DNA of 64,000 nucleotides from an uncultured Desulfospira sp. (GTDB taxonomy: Bacteria; Desulfobacterota; Desulfobacteria; Desulfobacterales; Desulfobacteraceae), in NCBI GenBank assembly GCA_963663165.1, contig OY760175.1:2560001-2624000 (forward strand), read 5' to 3'. The position numbers were made by a program, and so were the translations under genes. The notes beneath the pieces are model-generated. The model did no database searches. It had not been told where the DNA came from and worked only from the letters and a program-made list of their open reading frames with translations. Positions within the stretch are counted from its first letter, which is position 1; each line of letters begins with the position of its first letter. This document shows, piece by piece, positions 6,265 to 16,986 of the stretch.

Positions 6265-7041
6265 ATGGGAAATAACGAAAGAATGGGGGTAACAATTCTG
6301 GGGTCAGGGACCTGTGTGCCGTCTTTGGAGCGGCATGCCTGTTCGATTCTGGTGTCAGGGGGCGGATTGAATATCCTGGTGGATGCCGGCCCGGGCACCA
6401 TGGGCCAGCTGTTAAAAATCGGGAAGGGAATTGACGATATTGATGTCATCTTGCTGAGCCACTTTCATCCGGATCACTGTGCCGAGCTGGCGCCATTTGT
6501 CTTTTCCACAAAGTATCCCAAGCTTGACCGGGTAAAGCCCCTGACCCTTGGCGGCGGAACAGGGATCCGACAGCTGTTTGACCGCCTGAATACGGCCTAC
6601 GGCAAAACCCTTGAAATGCCGGAAGATTTGTTACACATCCTGGAGTTTGAGGAAAACGGAGAGGCCCAATGGGGTGACGGCCTTAAGGTTGCCTATGCAA
6701 AACCCGTCCATAATCCTGAAAGCCGGGCCTTTCGGTTTACCGGTCCGTCCGGGGACAGCGTGGTTTACTCCGGGGATACGGATTATTCCGGGGAACTGAT
6801 ACGCCTTTCTCTTGGTGCCGGTATCCTGATCTGCGAGTCCGCCCTCCCGGACGGTCAAAAGGTTAAAGGCCACCTGACCCCGTCCCTGGCAGGGAAGATC
6901 GCGGTCCAGGCCGGGGTGAACCACCTGGTTCTCACCCATTTTTATCCCGAATGCGATGCCGTGGACATCAGGGCCGAATGCCGGAAAACCTGGCCCGGCC
7001 CCCTGACCCTGGCCCGAGATTTGATGAGACTTGGGATATGA
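6265..7041 (+). CDS. Metallo-beta-lactamase-fold hydrolase (RNase Z-like)
   Basis: LGSGT, SHFHPDH, YSGDT, GHLT, LTHFY. Confidence 0.85.
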   Translation: MGNNERMGVTILGSGTCVPSLERHACSILVSGGGLNILVDAGPGTMGQLLKIGKGIDDIDVILLSHFHPDHCAELAPFVFSTKYPKLDRVKPLTLGGGTGIRQLFDRLNTAYGKTLEMPEDLLHILEFEENGEAQWGDGLKVAYAKPVHNPESRAFRFTGPSGDSVVYSGDTDYSGELIRLSLGAGILICESALPDGQKVKGHLTPSLAGKIAVQAGVNHLVLTHFYPECDAVDIRAECRKTWPGPLTLARDLMRLGI

Positions 7042-7121
7042 GGTATGGGACTTGGGATATGGGAAGATTCCCCAAGCCCCAAGCCCCAAGTCCCAAACCC
7101 CAAGCCCCAAGTCCCATATCT
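7027..7121. repeat. Inverted heptamer tandem arrays between convergent genes
   Basis: ACTTGGG/ATATGGG units followed by CCCCAAG/TCCCAAG units; overlaps both stop codons. Confidence 0.85.
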
Positions 7122-7929
7122 ATTCTATTAATTGAGTTGGCCGGTCACAGGACACTACATCCGCCCCAAGCGCAATGGCTTTTTCGGCCCGCTGCTTTAA
7201 GTCATGGGTCCCCCACAGGTAAACAAACACCTTTGCCCCGGCCTGCCGGGCCTCTTCAAACCCGCACCGGGGGAAAAACCATTCCGAAGCAAACAGGGCG
7301 TCCGCGTCCAGGGCCGTGATAACAAAGGTGGGCAAATCCTGGATTTTCCACCAGGTCAGAAGATCTACGGCGATTTTCAGACCGGGATTCAGGGCCTTTA
7401 AAGCCTTTGCCGTTTGCGTCTCCTTGAGGGGATCGGCAATGAAAAAATAGACCTGGTCGGCCATGTCTTCTGCCAGAACAATCCGGCCGGCCTTTACAGG
7501 GTCTGCATCTTTCAGGTCAAGGGTCAAAATGAAATCCGGGTCAGGCCGGACCAGATCCAGGGCCTCTTTGAGGGTTAATATTTTTTGTTGGGTAACCTTT
7601 CCGGTTCCGTCTTTGAGAAACAGGGCCTTGAGCTGTTCAAGGTTTTTTTCGCTGACCTTGCCCTGTCCTGTGGTACAGCGGTCCAGGAAATCGTCATGGA
7701 GAAGGACCAGGCGGCCGTCCATGCTGGTCCTCAAGTCCACTTCGCTGCCGAAAATGCCCAGGTCCATGGCCGCTTTGATGCTGCCGGCACAATTTTCCGG
7801 ATAGGTCCCGGTGATCCCCCGGTGGGCGCACACCCTGTCTTTATTCAGCCCTTGGCCCTGGGCAAATGTCGCGGGAATCGTCAGCCAGCAGACCAGGCTA
7901 ACGGCCAGCCATAAAGTTGTTTTTTTCAT
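7120..7929 (-). CDS. Secreted glycerophosphodiester phosphodiesterase
   Basis: AHRG, PEN, EVDLR, LLHD motifs; signal peptide from ATG 7929 (MKKTTLWL). Confidence 0.85.
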   Translation of the reverse strand: MKKTTLWLAVSLVCWLTIPATFAQGQGLNKDRVCAHRGITGTYPENCAGSIKAAMDLGIFGSEVDLRTSMDGRLVLLHDDFLDRCTTGQGKVSEKNLEQLKALFLKDGTGKVTQQKILTLKEALDLVRPDPDFILTLDLKDADPVKAGRIVLAEDMADQVYFFIADPLKETQTAKALKALNPGLKIAVDLLTWWKIQDLPTFVITALDADALFASEWFFPRCGFEEARQAGAKVFVYLWGTHDLKQRAEKAIALGADVVSCDRPTQLIE

Positions 7930-8211
7930 TGTTATATTCCTCTTTAGGGGTTTTGGGCCGGGATGATAATACAAATTATAAAAGAATGCTGGTACTTTTT
8001 TGCTCAAATGCAGGGATTTTTTTGCGGAATATGTGAATCAGTGCTGACGCATGAAAATTTATAGTCAATGATATCAATGACGCAGCTCGATATCCAAAAT
8101 TATTTTGTCGCAAAATTTAAATAGACAAAATTTCGGCCTTTTGATAATGTAGCATAGGGTACGAATGAGCGCCCCCCCAATCGAGACACTACATTTGAAG
8201 AGGAGGATGTC

Positions 8212-9087
8212 GTGATTGTCCAATGTGGCCGGAAAATTAAAGACGAAGAGCTTATACAGATTTGCGAGACAGTAGAGACCTTTTCGAATTTGAGTCAGAC
8301 TGAACTGGCTCATACAATATGCGAACATTTGGGCTGGTATACCGCTTCTGGTAGGAACAAGGTGGATGCCTGCCGGAAATTGCTTCTGCGACTGGAGTCC
8401 CAAGGTCTCATACGGTTGCCTGAAAAAGAGAAACTCGGTCCCATAAAGGGCTCTCAACAGAAACTGCCGGTAGCGGACGACAGGACCCAGCCCCAAGATA
8501 AGGTAGCGGGCACGCTTTCGGATATCGGGCCGATCGTTGTCAGGGTCGCACAAGACACGGAAGAACGCTCACTGGTTAATGAATACCTGCACCGTTACCA
8601 TTATCTTGGCTACAAGCGGCCGTTCGGATGTCATCTGCGTTATTTGATACAAGCTCAAGAGCGCATATTGGGATGTATGCTGTTCTCAGGGGCGGCCAAG
8701 GCGCTGACCCCGAGGGATCGATGGATCGGCTGGAGCACCAACGAACGCTTAAGAAACTTGGGATTTGTTGTAAACAATGGACGCTTCCTGATTTTTCCGT
8801 GGGTCAAGGTCCGGTATCTGGCAAGTCACGTATTGGGTAAAATTGTCAGAGATCTGGTGCAAGACTGGGAGCGGAGCTGGGGGTATCGGCCGGCTTTGCT
8901 GGAGACCTTTGTCGACCCACAACACTTCGATGGGACGTGCTATCGGGCGGCCAATTTTAGACACCTTGGCATGACCAGCGGAAAGGGGCTTGTCCGGCAG
9001 GGTAGAAGTTACAGGACCAGTCCCAAAAAAATCTTCGTTTATCCGCTGGTGAATAATTTCCGTCAGGTTTTGAGGCAGATCGGATGA
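8212..9087 (+). CDS. DUF4338 (DruA-like) protein, IS passenger
   Basis: RYHYLG, RDRWIGW, NN.RFLI.PW, LASH.LG, ETFVD..F.GTCYRAAN. Confidence 0.85.
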   Translation: MIVQCGRKIKDEELIQICETVETFSNLSQTELAHTICEHLGWYTASGRNKVDACRKLLLRLESQGLIRLPEKEKLGPIKGSQQKLPVADDRTQPQDKVAGTLSDIGPIVVRVAQDTEERSLVNEYLHRYHYLGYKRPFGCHLRYLIQAQERILGCMLFSGAAKALTPRDRWIGWSTNERLRNLGFVVNNGRFLIFPWVKVRYLASHVLGKIVRDLVQDWERSWGYRPALLETFVDPQHFDGTCYRAANFRHLGMTSGKGLVRQGRSYRTSPKKIFVYPLVNNFRQVLRQIG

Positions 9088-10610
9088 GCAAGCCTAGCCG
9101 ACGCCCCAATCGTGAGGAGATAAAGGCCAAAAGAAAGCAGTTTAAAAAGGAGCAGAGAAAATTACGTCGGGATGAAGAGGCCAGGGGATTTCAGCCGCCC
9201 TCTCATGGCACAATTTCTAACTGCAAATGCCGATATGAAAGTGTAGAACAGGAGGGGCGCATCCGCAATGAGGCCGTGGCTGAGAAAATGAGTATTTTTC
9301 GCGCTAAGCTGCCAATTCTGCTCAAACGTATGGCCAAGATTGAAGACCCTCGAAACCCTAAGAAGATAAAACACCAAATATCCACACTCATGATCTATGG
9401 GATACTGACCTTTGTGTTTCAGATGGCTTCTTGCCGTGAGGCCAACAAAGAAATGAGCCGGCCGATGTTCTGGAAGAATCTTCAATATTTTTTCCCGGAG
9501 CTTGAAACGCTTCCCCATCATGATACGTTAAAACGCCTATTGTCTAAGATTGATATCAATCAAATCAAGAAGCTTCATCTCGATCTGGTCAGAGATCTGA
9601 TCCGGAAAAAGAAATTTCGACGGTACCTGGTCAATGGCTGTTATCCGATTGCCATAGATGGTACCGGTAAATTCAAACGCGACTGGCTTTGGGATGAAGA
9701 GTGCCTGGAACGTAACATCAAGAAAGAGGATGGCACCAGGAAACAGTATCATGTCTATGTTCTGGAAGCTAATCTTGCGTTTTCCGATGGCATGAGCATT
9801 CCGCTGATAAGCGAAATCCTGAGCTACACCGAAGGAGATACCGCTAATGATAAGCAGGACTGCGAACTCAAGGCGTTTTACCGGTTAGCCTCTTGCCTGA
9901 AGGCGGCATTTCCCGCCCTAAAAATTATGGTGCTTTTGGATGGGCTTTATGCCAAGGGCCCCGTGGCAGAAATTTGCCGAACAAACAAATGGCAGTTCAT
10001 GATTGTACTGAAAGATGACGCTCTACCCAGCGTAATGAATGAATTTGAAACGCTTGCCGCACTCGATACAGAAAACTGCCACCAACACACATGGGGCAAT
10101 AGGAAACAGGTTTTTCGGTGGATCAACGCCATTGACTACCGGTTTGGTCCGAACGGCAAGAAAAGTCAAATCCTGCACGTTGTTGAATGCAAAGAGAGCT
10201 GGAAAGAGGTTAGCCGGGAAAGCGGTCAACCGGAAAAGAAAAATAGTCGTCATGTGTGGTTGTCCAGCGAACCTTTGGACAGATTTAATCTTCACGAACG
10301 ATGCAACATAGCCGCCCGTTCCCGTTGGTGTATTGAAACCGGTATTCTCGTTGAGAAACATCATGGATATGAGTACGAGCACTGTTTTTCGTATGATTGG
10401 AACGTCATGAAGGGGTATCATGCCTTGATGCGCCTGGGCCATATGTTTAACGTTTTGGCCAGATACTCGCAGCGGCTTGCCAGGATTATTGAAGATACCG
10501 GCGCACGGGGCCTGATTCGTTTAGTCCGGGATACCATGTCCGGCCCGTGGCTGGATTACATGTGGCTGGAAGATCGTCTGTCCACTCCCTTTCAACTCCG
10601 ATTAGTATGA
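9084..10610 (+). CDS. DDE transposase (ISAs1/IS4-like)
   Basis: DPRNPKKIKH N-terminal motif; IAIDGT, LLDGLY, RSRWCIE. Confidence 0.85.
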   Translation: MSKPSRRPNREEIKAKRKQFKKEQRKLRRDEEARGFQPPSHGTISNCKCRYESVEQEGRIRNEAVAEKMSIFRAKLPILLKRMAKIEDPRNPKKIKHQISTLMIYGILTFVFQMASCREANKEMSRPMFWKNLQYFFPELETLPHHDTLKRLLSKIDINQIKKLHLDLVRDLIRKKKFRRYLVNGCYPIAIDGTGKFKRDWLWDEECLERNIKKEDGTRKQYHVYVLEANLAFSDGMSIPLISEILSYTEGDTANDKQDCELKAFYRLASCLKAAFPALKIMVLLDGLYAKGPVAEICRTNKWQFMIVLKDDALPSVMNEFETLAALDTENCHQHTWGNRKQVFRWINAIDYRFGPNGKKSQILHVVECKESWKEVSRESGQPEKKNSRHVWLSSEPLDRFNLHERCNIAARSRWCIETGILVEKHHGYEYEHCFSYDWNVMKGYHALMRLGHMFNVLARYSQRLARIIEDTGARGLIRLVRDTMSGPWLDYMWLEDRLSTPFQLRLV

Positions 10611-10928
10611 CGGCAACGACGGACGGGTAATCGAAAACACTCTCCCAAGCAGAGAGGTGGGAACGCTATGTTCGGACCGAAGGACCGTCTTTCGTTTCGG
10701 CCATAGTCAGTGTCTGAAGGACTGCCTTTTTGAATTAAAAAAGGCTGGATCTCCCCCCAAAGGGAGTGGTTAGATCGACTAAAGCCAACCTTTTTTTATT
10801 CATGCGTCAGCACTGTATGTGAATGATTATCATTGACATTCATTATTGTGCTTGACATAGTAGGAAAAGTACATTTCACACATTGATTTTTAACAAAACA
10901 TTCCGGACGCAACTTAAAAAAAGAACAG

Positions 10929-11342
10929 ATGGGCGAAGAGTCAAAATTATTTTCCGCATCAGGCCTTACGGCCCGACTGTTTGAAGTCGTCGATCAGATG
11001 ACGGATTTTGAAAAAAAAGAGCTGCTCAAATTTCTGGATGGAAACCGGAGGGCCGGCCATCGCCTGCCCTATATGATGCCGGTGGCCTGTGAGACCGGTG
11101 AAATCCGGTTCAATGATTTTATACTGGATATCAGCGAAAGCGGGGCGTTTCTGGAGACTGCCCAGCCACTTGCCGTAAACCAGGCGCTTACCATCCATTT
11201 TCAGTTACCCCATGAGCCAGACCCCAGACCGGTTGAGTGCCGGGTGGCCTGGGTCGGCAAAAATGGCGCAGGGATCTTTTTTTCATTTGAAAGCCGGGAA
11301 CAGCAGGTTCTGGTGGCAGATTTGGTCGGTCAGTTGGGATGA
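10929..11342 (+). CDS. PilZ-domain protein
   Basis: RRAGHR (RxxxR) and DISESG (DxSxxG). Confidence 0.85.
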   Translation: MGEESKLFSASGLTARLFEVVDQMTDFEKKELLKFLDGNRRAGHRLPYMMPVACETGEIRFNDFILDISESGAFLETAQPLAVNQALTIHFQLPHEPDPRPVECRVAWVGKNGAGIFFSFESREQQVLVADLVGQLG

Positions 11343-11354
11343 TAAAACCTTTGG

Positions 11355-12719
11355 ATGTTCAAAAACGTTATGAAAGAGATCTTGCTTGCCAACAGGAACC
11401 CGTCCGAGGCTGAGGACTTAATCCACGTGCTCGGGCGGCATGTTAACATCACACTGATATCGTCTGCGTCAGAGCTTTCCCCGGGGGAAGCGTCTTATGA
11501 TCTGGTCCTCATTGATCATAATTTTACGGCCCATTCAGGCATTGATTTTTTAATGGACCTGTTGAGCTGGAAACCCCTGCCTGTTTTGATGCTGACCCCG
11601 CCCTCAGAGCCCCAGTGCGCCATTGAAGGCTTGAGGGCAGGGGCCTTTAACTATATAGTCAAAACAAAGGGGTATCTTAATTTCCTGCACATTGCCATTG
11701 ACGATGCCATCAGCAAGTTCCATGAAAAAAAACAGCTCAAAAAGACCATTGCAGAGCTTCAACGAAAGGTCCGGGAACTTGAAGGACAAATGGGGACCGC
11801 CAAACCCCCGCTGGCCGGCAAAGCAAGGGCCCCCCTGTCTGCCGCCCCCTCAAAACAGGCCCCCCGCAAACAAGGCAAACCCCCAAGCCTGATTGAACAG
11901 ATCATTTCGCGGTTCAAAAAAGGGGATGTCAACCTGCCCGCACTGCCCCAGATCGGCACCCAGTTTGATGCCATGCTTAAAAAAGGGGCCGATATCAAGG
12001 ACATCGCCATGCTGCTCAAGCAGGACGTTGCCATTACCTCCAAACTGATCAACGTGGCCAATTCCGCCCTTTACAGGGGGATTGAGCAGGTCACCCGGAT
12101 TGAAACCGCCATCGGCAAAATCGGGCTGGGCAAAACCCGGCAGTATGTGGAGATTATCGCCAACAGGAGTTTGTATACGTCCAGCAACAAGCGGTTTGTC
12201 GCCCTGGTCCAGAAATTGTGGGAACATTCCCTGGCCACGGCCTGGGCCGCAGAATATTTCAGCGGCCTGCTCAGCCTGAATACCGAGACCGATGTGTTTT
12301 CCCTGGGGCTTACCCACGACATCGGCAAGCTGATTTTAATCCAGGTCATTGGAGAACTGGATGGAAAGGGAAAGTACGGCTCATCCATGGACCATGATAA
12401 GGTGTTGTCCACCCTCAATCTCTACCACGGCCGGTTCGGGGCTGTGCTGCTCAACCGGTGGGGGTTCCCCCAGGCCTTTAAAGATACCGCCATGTTCCAT
12501 GACGATTTTAATCAGATGAAAGACCCCTCTTCGGAGTTCCTGTGCGTTCATCTGGCCAACCTCCTGGCCAACAAGATCGGATACGGCATTGGACCGGTGC
12601 CGGAGATGGAGCTTGCAGAAGCCGATTCCTGCCTTTTTCTAGGCCTTCGGCCCGACGAGATTGACGGGGCCTGCAATCAGACCGCCACCTACATGGATAC
12701 CATTAAAAAAGCCCTGTAA
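11355..12719 (+). CDS. Receiver-domain plus HDOD-domain protein
   Basis: DLVLID..GIDFL REC domain; LPALP, VANSALY, LWEHS, HDIGK. Confidence 0.88.
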   Translation: MFKNVMKEILLANRNPSEAEDLIHVLGRHVNITLISSASELSPGEASYDLVLIDHNFTAHSGIDFLMDLLSWKPLPVLMLTPPSEPQCAIEGLRAGAFNYIVKTKGYLNFLHIAIDDAISKFHEKKQLKKTIAELQRKVRELEGQMGTAKPPLAGKARAPLSAAPSKQAPRKQGKPPSLIEQIISRFKKGDVNLPALPQIGTQFDAMLKKGADIKDIAMLLKQDVAITSKLINVANSALYRGIEQVTRIETAIGKIGLGKTRQYVEIIANRSLYTSSNKRFVALVQKLWEHSLATAWAAEYFSGLLSLNTETDVFSLGLTHDIGKLILIQVIGELDGKGKYGSSMDHDKVLSTLNLYHGRFGAVLLNRWGFPQAFKDTAMFHDDFNQMKDPSSEFLCVHLANLLANKIGYGIGPVPEMELAEADSCLFLGLRPDEIDGACNQTATYMDTIKKAL

Positions 12720-12763
12720 ACGCGCTGAACGCTTTTTAAGATTCAAAGTGGGTGCATTCCCAT

Positions 12764-14164
12764 TTAGTGGCCTAAGCAAAGTGACCGAATTTGTATGAAG
12801 ATATTGTCAGTCAAGATGTTCCACCTCCCGGAAAGGAGCTGACTCCTTAAGAACAACATTGATTCGGATGTTTCCGGTTTCCAGAATATACCCGGTGATT
12901 TCATTCTGAGATTTATAACCCGACGTATTGCACTTTCAACACAGCCGCTGCCAGTAGGTATTTTCAGGCTGCGGAACTGGCGATACTGCATTCTGTTTCG
13001 ATTTTTCACGAAGTAACTTTTAAATTTGGATAATGCTTCTATGCGCCTTTTAGGGTACGTAATGTGTTTTACAATTTCTTTTCTAAGGTCTTTGAATCTG
13101 CCATCCCAAAGGAGGTTCTTCCAAGATTCTGCTATCCGGTTTCTTTCTTTTATAGGGATTCTCTTTGGCAATTTGTCCACGATTTCATGTAAATTCTGTT
13201 TTGCATGGGTGTAGTCGATTACCTCATAATAGGATTCGATTTCAAGCCGTTTGGCCAGCGGGCCTGTTCGCTTCCAATAGCTACGTGCACCGTCACAGCA
13301 GAAAACAACACGCTTGGCTTTGGGAATATCTAATTCACGCAAGTAGATCTCAAGAATATCAAAAGCGGCATCAATACCGCCCATTGTGGCATCATAAACC
13401 GGCAAGTGTTTTTTGGATATTGTGCCGTCCGGATCGACAATATGTATGACAAACTGAATGGGTTCTTTCCATTCAGTATGATATCCCTGCCGCTTTTGGC
13501 CTTTTGATTTACGTCCCCGTTTTGGCCTCCGTTCTCGAAGGCGACCGCCGTCGATACAAACCAGAACCGTTTTGCCACCAACGCGATCAGTATCTCCAAA
13601 AGATACCCGGCCACGCAGGGGCATAGCTTCCTGTGCAAGATTCATTGTTATGCGGCGTATAGTTTTGACATTTAAGTTGATTGCATGGTTTTCCAGGGAT
13701 CTTCGGGCAATTTCAAAAGAGGGGCAGAGCAATGCTGCATGGACCACCGACGAAGCGAACAGCGTTGAACACCTGCCGATAAAACCAAGGTAATCAAGCC
13801 CAAAATGGCGGCCTGTCCCCTTTTGTCGTTTTTTTGTTTTAGGGCCTGGCCGTTGTTTGGAAACAACTTTTGAAAAGTAAGGGGATCGGATGCTCAGGGT
13901 AGTTCCTGTCAATAATCGAATGCTGCTGGGGCGGTATCCGTTGAAACGCAGTCCCTTTTTACCGGCACCAATTTTCAGTTCAGATAAAAGATCCGGGTCA
14001 GACAGTGCCTTTTCAATGACGGGAACCAGAAATGCTTCCACAATAATGAAGAGGCCGTTCCGTACCTGCTCACACAGGATATTAGCATTTTGATGGTTTT
14101 GGAAATCAGCTACGGCTTTTGTTAGAAGGGTTCGAATATCCCTTATAGTGGAAGCAAGTTTCAT
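12764..14164 (-). CDS. ISKra4/ISLre2-like DDE transposase
   Basis: IDGG, CDGA, DYTHA (DxxH), GSGCVESA..VI..RMK. Confidence 0.85.
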   Translation of the reverse strand: MKLASTIRDIRTLLTKAVADFQNHQNANILCEQVRNGLFIIVEAFLVPVIEKALSDPDLLSELKIGAGKKGLRFNGYRPSSIRLLTGTTLSIRSPYFSKVVSKQRPGPKTKKRQKGTGRHFGLDYLGFIGRCSTLFASSVVHAALLCPSFEIARRSLENHAINLNVKTIRRITMNLAQEAMPLRGRVSFGDTDRVGGKTVLVCIDGGRLRERRPKRGRKSKGQKRQGYHTEWKEPIQFVIHIVDPDGTISKKHLPVYDATMGGIDAAFDILEIYLRELDIPKAKRVVFCCDGARSYWKRTGPLAKRLEIESYYEVIDYTHAKQNLHEIVDKLPKRIPIKERNRIAESWKNLLWDGRFKDLRKEIVKHITYPKRRIEALSKFKSYFVKNRNRMQYRQFRSLKIPTGSGCVESAIRRVINLRMKSPGIFWKPETSESMLFLRSQLLSGRWNILTDNIFIQIRSLCLGH

Positions 14165-14221
14165 GATCAGTCCTCGAATTGCAGGTTGAAAAATTACCTG
14201 TCATTTCGATGACTGAAACCC

Positions 14222-15094
14222 TCAAGTTTGTGTGCATAGCTGCTTTTTATAATTGGAAGTCAACGGGTATACATAGATGTCTTTTATCGGCACCTGAAGT
14301 CTGTGGTGCCTGTCTTGACGGCTTCGCCCTTTGCTTTGACCAATTTTTTGCCAATTTGCCGCCTGGTAGCAAGTTCCGGCAAAGCGTGATCGATCCACGA
14401 AAGTTTCTACCAGACAGATATCGTGACCATATTTAGCTGTCCAGTCCCGGCTCAGCCGCCTAAGACATGAACCCAGAATATGACTGGCAAGATGGGGAAT
14501 TCGAATCCATGGCAAAATCAAAAATCGGGTATTGTTGGTCGTCATATGCAGGTTCCTGCGACGAGCCGACCTATCCCAACCGATGAATCGGTCACGAGGG
14601 GCCGTTTTCCATGCTGCTGAGCCAAAAAGCAGGCAGGCAACCGGACGAGAATTGCGATCAAAAGCCATATACTTCATATGTTCTCCGACATACCCTTTAC
14701 ACCCAAGGTAATGATATCGATCCATAAGGCAATGGAATAAATCATCAATATCTCCACGGCCCGATACCGGTATCAATTGTATCGGGCGGATCTTACGCAA
14801 AGTGGTTTCTATCGGCTTACAATCATGGGGGACATCGGGAATACGCCGCTGACGGTTACCGCTATGACGGGCAACGGGAAGTGTGACCATCCCTTTTTGC
14901 TCAAGTTTTCTCAGCATGCTTCGACAGGCCATGTCCTTGAGCAGACCTTTTTCCGTGCGCCAATCCCAGCGAGCACACAATTCTTTGGATAAACGAGTGC
15001 GGTGCCAGGCGGGATTGTCGTTAATCAAATGGCGTATCGTTTGTATATCAACTTCTGAAAATTCACGTCCTTGAATGGTTAAAGTCCTGCTCAT
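14222..15094 (-). CDS. DUF4338 (DruA-like) protein, IS passenger
   Basis: Collinear homolog of 8212-9087 (RYHYLG, RDRFIGW, ETFVD..FAGTCYQAANW). Confidence 0.85.
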   Translation of the reverse strand: MSRTLTIQGREFSEVDIQTIRHLINDNPAWHRTRLSKELCARWDWRTEKGLLKDMACRSMLRKLEQKGMVTLPVARHSGNRQRRIPDVPHDCKPIETTLRKIRPIQLIPVSGRGDIDDLFHCLMDRYHYLGCKGYVGEHMKYMAFDRNSRPVACLLFGSAAWKTAPRDRFIGWDRSARRRNLHMTTNNTRFLILPWIRIPHLASHILGSCLRRLSRDWTAKYGHDICLVETFVDRSRFAGTCYQAANWQKIGQSKGRSRQDRHHRLQVPIKDIYVYPLTSNYKKQLCTQT

Positions 15095-15288
15095 GCAAAT
15101 CTATATAACCTTTCATGAGCCAGGAGTCCAGCTTTTTTTGGGAGGGCAGAGTATTCAATGCAGCATGAAAAACGGAAAAATTGGATACATGTCAGTTCAT
15201 GCCACTAAATGGGATTGCACCCATTCAAAGTTGCCGGAATTTTCCCCGGGCAATTGTGAAAACGGCCGTGATCTGTTAATAGGTCTGC

Positions 15289-16986
15289 ATGATGCTTAAA
15301 TTCAAAGATATGATTGATCTGGATTACCTGCTTGAGCAGGATGAGCATGCCCTGGCCGGGACCGGCTTTTCTGAAAAACCATCGGCAGACACGGGTCAAC
15401 CCTCACATGGGCAGGGGCCGGGCATTGCCCAGCGGGACCGGGATATATTCAACCAGTTGAACGGTAAGGCCCTGGATGAACGGCAGGTGCTTGAAGAATG
15501 GCTGGGGCATCGCCGGCGGGTTTATTTTGAGGAATCCGGAAAATCCATGCTGCCGGGCCGGATGTTCAGTCTGGCCTGCAAGTGGGCCGCACGACTGCTG
15601 TTTTTTTTAGGGGGATTTTTCGGGTTTGGCATGGCCTATTCTTTTCTGGCCTATCACGGGACCCGGCCGGTCAATGTGACCCTGTTCTTTGCGATTTTTA
15701 TCCTGGTGCCCTTTGTTCTGTTTTTGTTTTCACTGACCGCCATGCTGCCGGGACGAAAAAAATCCATGATTTATTCTCTGGCCGCCTTTCTGGTTTTTAA
15801 AGGGATCCCCCGGGGGGTGGGGAAAATTGGAAAAATAACCGGCCATGCCCACTGGACAGCAGGCGCCCAAAGCTGTACTGACGCGGTATCCTCCCTGGTT
15901 TCCCGGAAAAAAACTGAGTACGGCCCCCTGATGTTCTGGACCTTTTTTATCCTTGCCGGCCTGCTCGGCCTGGGGTTTTCAACCGGGGTGCTTTGCGCCA
16001 CCTTTTTTAAAGTGGCGGTCAGTGATGTGGCCTTTGGGTGGCAGTCCAGCCTTACCGGGACCACCGGCGGGACCACCGAACAGGTAGCGGCCATTGTCCG
16101 GGCCATTGGGCTGCCCTGGTCCTGGTTCCTTCCCGGGGCAGTGCCCGGTCCCGACCAGATCATGGGTTCACGGATTGTCCTCAAACAGGGATTGGCCGCC
16201 CTTTCCACAGAACACCTGGTCTCCTGGTGGCCTTTTCTTATCATGGGGATCCTGGTGTATGCCCTTTTTCCCCGCGCCGTTCTGGTGGCTGCCGGGATGG
16301 CGGCCCGTTCCCGGGCGGAACGCCGGTTTGATATTAACCGGCCCCGGTTTCGAAAGCTTCTGATCCGGATGCAGACCCCGGTCATGGACATAGAGTATGA
16401 GGAATCCCCGGCAAAGGCCCCGGATATGCCGGCGACCCGGGAAACAACAGCCCGGCCCGGTCCGGAACGGGTTCTGGTCCCGGACCCGGTGGCAGCGGCT
16501 GAACCGGAACCGGCCCTAAGGCCAGCTGTTAAAGACCGCCCTGTTGGGGGCCCGGCACTTCTGCCGGCCGTGGTGCTGGCCCCGTCAATGATATATGATG
16601 ACAAGGCCCTTGATCGGATGATTCCCTGGGTCAACCGTCAGCTGGCCTTAAATACCCTGGGCCGGATTGACGTGTCCTTTGATTTTGAAAGTGACCGGAA
16701 CGTTCTGGAATCGGCCGCCGATTCCCTGCCCGGCCAAGTGGTTCTTTTCCAGGAGGTCTGGCAGCCGCCCATCAGGGCCATGCTTCATTATATTACTCAG
16801 TTAAAGACCCAGGTCCTGGCACAACAGAATTTGTGGATCCTGCTCACCCGGACCCCGGGGGAGAAAAGCCTGGCCGTGGATCCGGATGATCCGGATTTAA
16901 AGGTCTGGCAAACGGCGGTCCGGAACCTGGGGCTGGCCGATGTCGGGGTGGAAGGACTGGCCGAAAGGATGAGGGAGGAAGGATGA
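15289..16986 (+). CDS. DUF2868-family membrane protein
   Basis: Several TM segments, FGWQSS, WWPFL, WQPP; adjacent to a DUF3482 GTPase. Confidence 0.75.
   Translation: MMLKFKDMIDLDYLLEQDEHALAGTGFSEKPSADTGQPSHGQGPGIAQRDRDIFNQLNGKALDERQVLEEWLGHRRRVYFEESGKSMLPGRMFSLACKWAARLLFFLGGFFGFGMAYSFLAYHGTRPVNVTLFFAIFILVPFVLFLFSLTAMLPGRKKSMIYSLAAFLVFKGIPRGVGKIGKITGHAHWTAGAQSCTDAVSSLVSRKKTEYGPLMFWTFFILAGLLGLGFSTGVLCATFFKVAVSDVAFGWQSSLTGTTGGTTEQVAAIVRAIGLPWSWFLPGAVPGPDQIMGSRIVLKQGLAALSTEHLVSWWPFLIMGILVYALFPRAVLVAAGMAARSRAERRFDINRPRFRKLLIRMQTPVMDIEYEESPAKAPDMPATRETTARPGPERVLVPDPVAAAEPEPALRPAVKDRPVGGPALLPAVVLAPSMIYDDKALDRMIPWVNRQLALNTLGRIDVSFDFESDRNVLESAADSLPGQVVLFQEVWQPPIRAMLHYITQLKTQVLAQQNLWILLTRTPGEKSLAVDPDDPDLKVWQTAVRNLGLADVGVEGLAERMREEG

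Follow-up and report, generated by a model that had tools for sequence, protein, structure and literature searches.

Unrelated insertion sequences share a DUF4338 gene that may act as a portable promoter-plus-enzyme cassette

Two insertion sequences with a common partner gene

Why do two unrelated insertion sequences (ISs) in one genome each carry a DUF4338 (PF14236) gene, of a family labelled 'Druantia DruA', directly 5' of the transposase gene? The question is raised by a 64,000-nucleotide stretch from an uncultured Desulfospira sp. (GenBank assembly GCA_963663165.1, contig OY760175.1, positions 2,560,001 to 2,624,000; hereafter the window), in which we call the two elements ISA and ISB. Our analysis suggests that the gene serves transposition as a plug-in control switch and is not there for phage defence. 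The reading that we favour, tentatively, is that DUF4338 is a portable promoter-plus-gene cassette which unrelated IS families plug in at the head of the transposase unit. That the promoter and its enzyme act on the DNA of their own element and so control the expression of transposase seems to us a possibility approaching, but not reaching, an even chance.

ISA (8039-10815, plus strand) is bounded by perfect 17-bp terminal inverted repeats (TIRs) at 8039-8055 (plus strand; its end motif recurs in metagenome relatives) and 10799-10815 (minus strand; the inverted match to the left end), and by identical copies of a 9-bp target-site duplication (TSD), TATGTGAAT, at 8030-8038 on the left and 10816-10824 on the right. 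ISB (12750-15222, minus strand) has 22-bp TIRs with one mismatch, at 12750-12771 (plus strand, transposase end) and 15201-15222 (minus strand, DUF4338 end), and its 9-bp TSD, ATTCAAAGT, stands as a direct repeat at 12741-12749 on the low side and 15223-15231 on the high side. The initial annotation, made from the sequence alone, had described two complete ISs with TIRs and 9-bp TSDs about 2 kb apart, which is borne out with a gap of 1,934 bp, and it was equally right in placing a DUF4338 protein of roughly 290 residues directly upstream of each transposase. In ISA the 291-aa protein (8212-9087, plus strand), a helical N-terminal domain followed by a predicted Mom-like GNAT domain, is encoded by an open reading frame (ORF) that overlaps the ORF of the 508-aa transposase (9084-10610, plus strand) by 4 nt; in ISB the 290-aa protein (14222-15094, minus strand; GNAT domain at about residues 100-289) is separated by 57 nt from the downstream 466-aa transposase (12764-14164, minus strand). 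Ten ISA copies, 99.7-100% identical, were found in the genome and all ten have a perfect 9-bp TSD. Ten ISB copies retain both ends, with perfect 9-bp TSDs in six, swapped ones in two and none in two; two further copies are truncated, and remnants occur as well. Because multiple genome copies have perfect 9-bp TSDs, the two elements are not chance arrangements, and both are recently active jumping genes.

The initial annotation had called the ISA transposase ISAs1/IS4-like. The presence of PF13808 and the placement in the IS4 superfamily stand, whereas the ISAs1 model reached 13.2 bits against a cut-off of 70, and domain and motif evidence leads us to class the protein as IS4-superfamily / ISNCY-like, with D192, D286 and E418 as the motif-inferred catalytic triad. 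Distant relatives (23-25%) of its sister clade are annotated as 'ISNCY family'. The ISMae2-like group of ISNCY has CAG ends and 9-bp repeats, and ISA, whose ends and TSD fit, may belong to it. For ISB the label ISKra4-like (Mutator type) holds as far as the best model is ISKra4 NF033572 (E 2e-30), although its 106 bits lie below the cut-off of 205; the motif-inferred triad is D205, D291 and E410. With its 22-bp TIRs and 9-bp TSD, ISB also fits the repeat definition given for ISKra4 in PMC3942029 (inverted repeats of 18-39 bp, direct repeats of 8-9 bp).

The two partner proteins belong to one family by a wide margin (PF14236 scores of 138.7 bits in ISA and 125.3 bits in ISB; cut-off 27), so that the earlier statement that both ISs carry the same DUF4338 gene is correct at the family level. 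It is not correct below that level: the proteins share only 36% identity and are separated by a branch with 100% support, and we therefore take them for two separate recruitments. Each of the genome's 24 PF14236 matches lies inside ISA, ISB or a third partner family, IS66. One IS66 element (C1:1865473-1868886) has the order tnpA, tnpB, DUF4338, tnpC, and a search for a TSD at its ends found none; its twin with DUF4338 at C1:3259356-3260756 is frameshifted.

A portable partner of many transposases

A profile search for DUF4338 returned 12,953 clusters (50% identity) at E 0.001, a set that will take in true DruA and other kin, and 2,178 at 1e-30. We surveyed the neighbourhoods of the best 80 of 593 confirmed genome loci, a sample biased towards the ISB clade in which a few loci share one genome. 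A same-strand transposase starting within about 600 nt downstream was found at 74 of the 80, from IS66 (49), ISKra4 (10), IS1182/IS5-like (5), an ISNCY-like type represented by locus L113 (5), IS4 (3), IS50 (1) and IS1634 (1) elements. Three of the remaining loci have no transposase and in three the sequence ended too soon. At one of the transposase-free loci (L072:802-3281) the DUF4338 gene and its upstream box are followed by a Fic-family gene. Among metagenome loci with an ISA-type transposase, 31/32 carry the DUF4338 gene, and the remaining locus begins inside the transposase.

The gene is either co-directional with the transposase and 5' of it, or fused to it. Of 150 DUF4338 representatives the 55 longest were inspected, and 35 are fused to a transposase domain: IS4-type in 17, IS50 in 13, IS66 in 3 (with the DUF domain last), IS630 in 1 and ISAzo13 in 1. 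The other 20 comprise 16 with PF14236 alone, two with unrelated domains and two fusions to DUF6788 (P0329 and P0390). In a quick tree of 97 rows, 14 partner types need 17 label changes, and the loci are distributed over many phyla. The suggestion of a portable transposase partner, for which the initial annotation had proposed such a survey by transposase family, is borne out by neighbourhoods, fusions and tree alike.

The gene also appears to be maintained as a protein: dN/dS was 0.10-0.17 in the seven measurable ISA pairs (4/11 were saturated), compared with 0.06-0.11 for the transposase in ISA pairs, and 0.08-0.16 in three ISB pairs, values that indicate purifying selection. Two single loci may be recorded here. 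In a bin labelled Christensenellaceae (Bacillota), one ISB copy (L065) is identical to ours in the DUF4338 gene and nearly so in the transposase; either the element crossed between phyla very recently or the binning is wrong. On a Thiodictyon plasmid (L232:2501-3835), a DUF4338 gene whose 5' part is cut by an ISKra4 element is fused to an ORF annotated as an ISAs1 transposase.

The cassette appears to bring its own promoter

In seven IS pairs with related DUF4338 genes and different transposases, DNA likeness stops at the DUF4338 stop codon in 7/7, and in four it starts about 35-60 nt before the start codon. This upstream strip holds a predicted leaderless promoter in ISB (15102-15130, minus strand), recognised by a conserved octamer and its spacing: a -35-like TGGACT (15130-15125), 17 nt, a -10 TATATA (15107-15102) and the start codon at 15094. 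After exclusion of 11 of the 80 loci (four without upstream DNA or N-terminus and seven duplicates), the combination of C[TG]GGACT[CA] with a -10-like hexamer 17 nt downstream and, at 35-37 nt from the box, an in-frame start codon was found at 53 of 69 distinct outside loci. Box-bearing loci fall into seven transposase groups (IS66 32/40, ISKra4 8/9, L113 type 5/5, IS4 2/3, IS50 1/1, IS1634 1/1, IS1182-like 1/5; unassigned loci 3/5), and only 3/53 have a Shine-Dalgarno-like word. As background, 46/2000 random 90-mers gave a match, and the core was found inside the gene at 3/69 loci.

At the level of sequence, the ISB-clade cassette is seen to come with a -35 box that departs from the consensus and is spaced for a leaderless message, and other DUF4338 subclades have fixed boxes of their own. 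TGGACT is not simply the hosts' consensus, since none of 48 host hexamers at the docking sites described below reads TGGACT. Given that the box is kept across unrelated transposases and hosts, its reader would most simply be the shared DUF4338 protein, with the proviso that the loci are kin and not independent.

The ISA promoter is predicted to be of a different, leadered kind (8122-8150, plus strand), with -35 TAGACA at 8122-8127, 17 nt, a -10-like hexamer at 8145-8150 in a spacing conserved in the ISA-clade alignment, and a predicted ribosome-binding site at 8200-8205 (plus strand). Just 5' of it lies a near-palindrome (8102-8116) that recurs within three mismatches in 19/19 ISA-clade relatives versus 11/2000 random 200-mers. 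It cannot be assigned to DUF4338, because sister elements that lack the DUF4338 gene have its left half.

A predicted Mom-like fold and a candidate active site

What might such a protein do? A GNAT assignment of DUF4338 has already been published (PMC10853773). In our structure prediction (pLDDT 89.9) the protein has a GNAT fold, with phage Mu Mom as the top match of each of two PDB searches and phage proteins of the Mom family at ranks 1 and 4 in a viral library, and the likeness to Mom that the initial annotation had sensed in a short motif is thereby supported at the level of a model, with Mom as the nearest solved structure. Mom (PF25680, PDB 8bv8) is a Gly-tRNA(Gly)-dependent adenine N6 modifier of double-stranded DNA (PMC13219725). 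Counterparts of Mom H58, Y59, S124, D149 and Y159 were aligned by hhalign and are conserved in DUF4338, while that of R111 (R190 in ISB numbering) was placed by motif spacing only; the Mom-type residues are H130, Y131, R191, S205, D235 and Y244 in ISA and H128, Y129, R190, S204, D234, R237 and Y243 in ISB.

The resemblance has its bounds. Identity to Mom is 17%, and against the Mom profile the ISB protein scores 15.9 bits, below the cut-off of 27.1, and the ISA protein has no match; among 79 DUF4338 members the profile matches 26 at E<0.05 (best 1.7e-6). The position of Mom R151 is not fixed, being R in 56/79 members and H in ISA. The helix-turn-helix (HTH)-like insertion of Mom (about residues 175-209), which is required for activity (PMC13219725), has no counterpart in DUF4338, where the profile alignment shows a 21-residue gap. 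Conversely, DUF4338 has an RDxWIGW insert and an extra helical N-terminal domain of 75 residues, seen in the model of the whole protein as three helices and a hairpin; a weak Pfam match to HTH_32 was found there in 18/68 members (best E 0.004), and the HTH-like character that the initial annotation gave the N-terminus is a possibility. The genes also differ in setting, Mom lying among phage late genes and DUF4338 on ISs.

Promoter docking by ISA

The ten ISA copies sit in a single orientation, with TT at positions 18-19 past the right end in 10/10 and TTG in 8/10 (P 6e-13; corrected 4e-9), and the docking sites frequently read TTGACA followed by a -10-like hexamer 17 nt on. In the window ISA has docked at a host sigma70-type promoter (10833-10861, plus strand; TTGACA, 17 nt, CATAGT), the top of 10 promoter-like sites in 8000-15300, at an offset that recurs in other ISA copies. 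This promoter lies ahead of a PilZ gene (10929-11342, plus strand), which is followed by a receiver-HDOD gene (11355-12719, plus strand); both are host genes in neither IS, each IS being bounded by its own TSD. Among ISA relatives TTG stands at position 18 in 19/23 distinct right flanks versus 0/18 left flanks.

A sister clade of 1.76-1.98 kb elements that lack the DUF4338 gene docks at the same offset (9/15 right flanks, of which 8/15 come from one genome and 5/7 of the others dock; 0/16 left flanks), although one of these loci is cut and may have held the gene. Such DUF4338-less elements (L209-L226, L189, L190), with CAG ends and 9-bp TSDs and multi-copy in one genome (G449), apparently form an unnamed IS group. 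No docking motif was found on either side of ISB (0/10) or in two L113-type elements carrying DUF4338. PMC3942029 describes oriented insertion 15-17 bp upstream of -35 boxes, with 8-9 bp repeats, for the Mutator-type TnGBS, ISLre2 and part of ISKra4, where insertion upstream of sigmaA promoters is given for 13 members only; within the literature that could be searched, -35 docking is described for such Mutator-type elements alone. ISA resembles them in docking at 17 bp and differs in its IS4-superfamily / ISNCY-like transposase, whereas the ISKra4-like ISB does not dock. By docking 17 bp ahead of -35 boxes, elements of the ISA type leave genes intact, and this behaviour suggests that a contact between transposase and RNA polymerase has evolved a second time.

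A predicted switch and its rivals

How might promoter and enzyme work together? The cassette promoter would also drive the transposase. DUF4338 would recognise its own element, most simply at the box, through the additional helical domain at its N-terminus. Its chemistry would be that of Mom, an aminoacyl group passing from a charged tRNA to adenine of double-stranded DNA, though locally. Self-control of transposition would be its likeliest role: a marked or bound promoter would be off, transposase would be made mainly when the promoter is unmarked, after replication or on arrival in a new host, and copies already resident would damp each other. That the box drives transcription, that the protein binds DNA, which reaction it catalyses and in which direction control runs are all inferred, and the function is a predicted one. 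The fullest version is more doubtful. In it, a tRNA-dependent Mom-type enzyme that recognises and marks its own promoter would form a widespread, self-contained IS epigenetic switch, gating transposase by replication state or new-host entry, and no fewer than eight transposase groups would have exchanged it; beside it would stand an IS lineage that docks at promoters without belonging to the Mutator superfamily.

Among the alternatives, anti-restriction marking as in Mu would have adenines modified on the IS, the transposition intermediate or the carrier, the promoter setting only the dose. This is Mom's own role (PMC13219725, PMC7261163), and the broad phylum spread, with the DUF4338-identical ISB copy in the Bacillota-labelled bin, speaks for it. 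A donor must, however, protect its whole carrier, which fits poorly with the transposase fusions; broad S-A-S marking would strike TTGACA promoters, and PMC7261163 describes Mom as toxic; and only 2/72,556 plasmid records carried DUF4338 at E 1e-8. We consider this reading unlikely. A GNAT that acylates protein or RNA (transposase, RNA polymerase or sigma, tRNA) would tune transposition without touching DNA, which is distinctly unlikely given that the structure searches led to Mom and to Mom-family phage proteins. Moreover, R101 of Mom (R111 in the longer numbering) is conserved in Mom homologues and not across GNATs according to PMC7261163, and DUF4338 has an invariant Arg on the matching strand.

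GNAT toxins are well known, and a passenger gene that helps the host as a stand-alone DruA-like defence or punishes loss of the element as an addiction toxin might be considered, the more so as PF14236 is the DruA family of Druantia type I (PMC7251935). The likeness to DruA nevertheless ends with the shared Pfam family: a DUF4338 protein of about 290 aa matches the 407-position PADLOC DruA1 model just at E 2e-4 over 50-83 positions, it lies inside an IS, and its neighbours are transposases instead of a druB-D or DruE operon, the genome's single PF09369 ORF lying 23 kb from the nearest match. The initial annotation was correct that no other dru genes are present. Neither IS holds an antitoxin ORF, as no same-strand ORF of at least 70 aa lies upstream within the 128-173 nt between IS end and start codon, and a fixed pre-transposase position with in-frame fusions is atypical of passengers; we regard a passenger as improbable. 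The initial annotation's second proposal, that DUF4338 selects targets, fared worst and is highly improbable. ISA does dock at a fixed distance from -35 boxes, and docking is somewhat commoner with the gene (27/33) than without it (9/15), but the difference is not significant (Fisher P 0.15), and docking is not due to DUF4338 because the DUF4338-less sisters dock at the same offset and the DUF4338-bearing ISB does not.

The self-control reading has partial precedents. In IS91, the upstream, stop-start-coupled Orf121 supplies the promoter for the transposase and has a regulatory role in transposition, although it is confined to IS91 and is not described as an enzyme (abstract of PMC13181058). 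Four ISKra4 elements bear extra genes of unknown function that the main text does not identify (PMC3942029). Our literature search found no account of a DUF4338 gene in an IS. Iyer et al. (2009, Cell Cycle 8:1698) reportedly linked Mom-like proteins to diverse bacterial transposase families, as prediction only, and that work is not known to treat a promoter cassette or -35 docking; the core idea of a Mom-like IS enzyme may be an old prediction. In Dam control of IS10 and IS50, adenine marks gate the transposase promoter, but Dam is a host enzyme whereas DUF4338 is carried by the IS. If our reading is true, simple bacterial ISs would possess a DNA-modifying enzyme with which they control themselves, the 2,178 clusters found at E up to 1e-30 would be largely transposon hardware, the 'Druantia DruA' annotation would inflate defence-system counts, and a sequence-directed aminoacyl-DNA writer would be a possible tool.

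Other arrangements in the genome

Two same-orientation ISB copies with swapped TSDs flank a 16.3-kb, mobile-gene-rich segment of 42% GC (C1:5391126-5412366), the pattern that integration of a circle by way of ISB would leave. A 4.3-kb element (C1:1874150-1878429), which carries an ATPase and an integrase-like ORF of 582 aa, splits one ISA copy. At C1:223785-229497 about 480 bp separate an ISA copy from an ISB copy minus its last 12 bp, with a further ISA at 237302. Finally, short heptamer-like repeats, tandem and inverted, occupy positions 7024-7124 of the window between two host genes.

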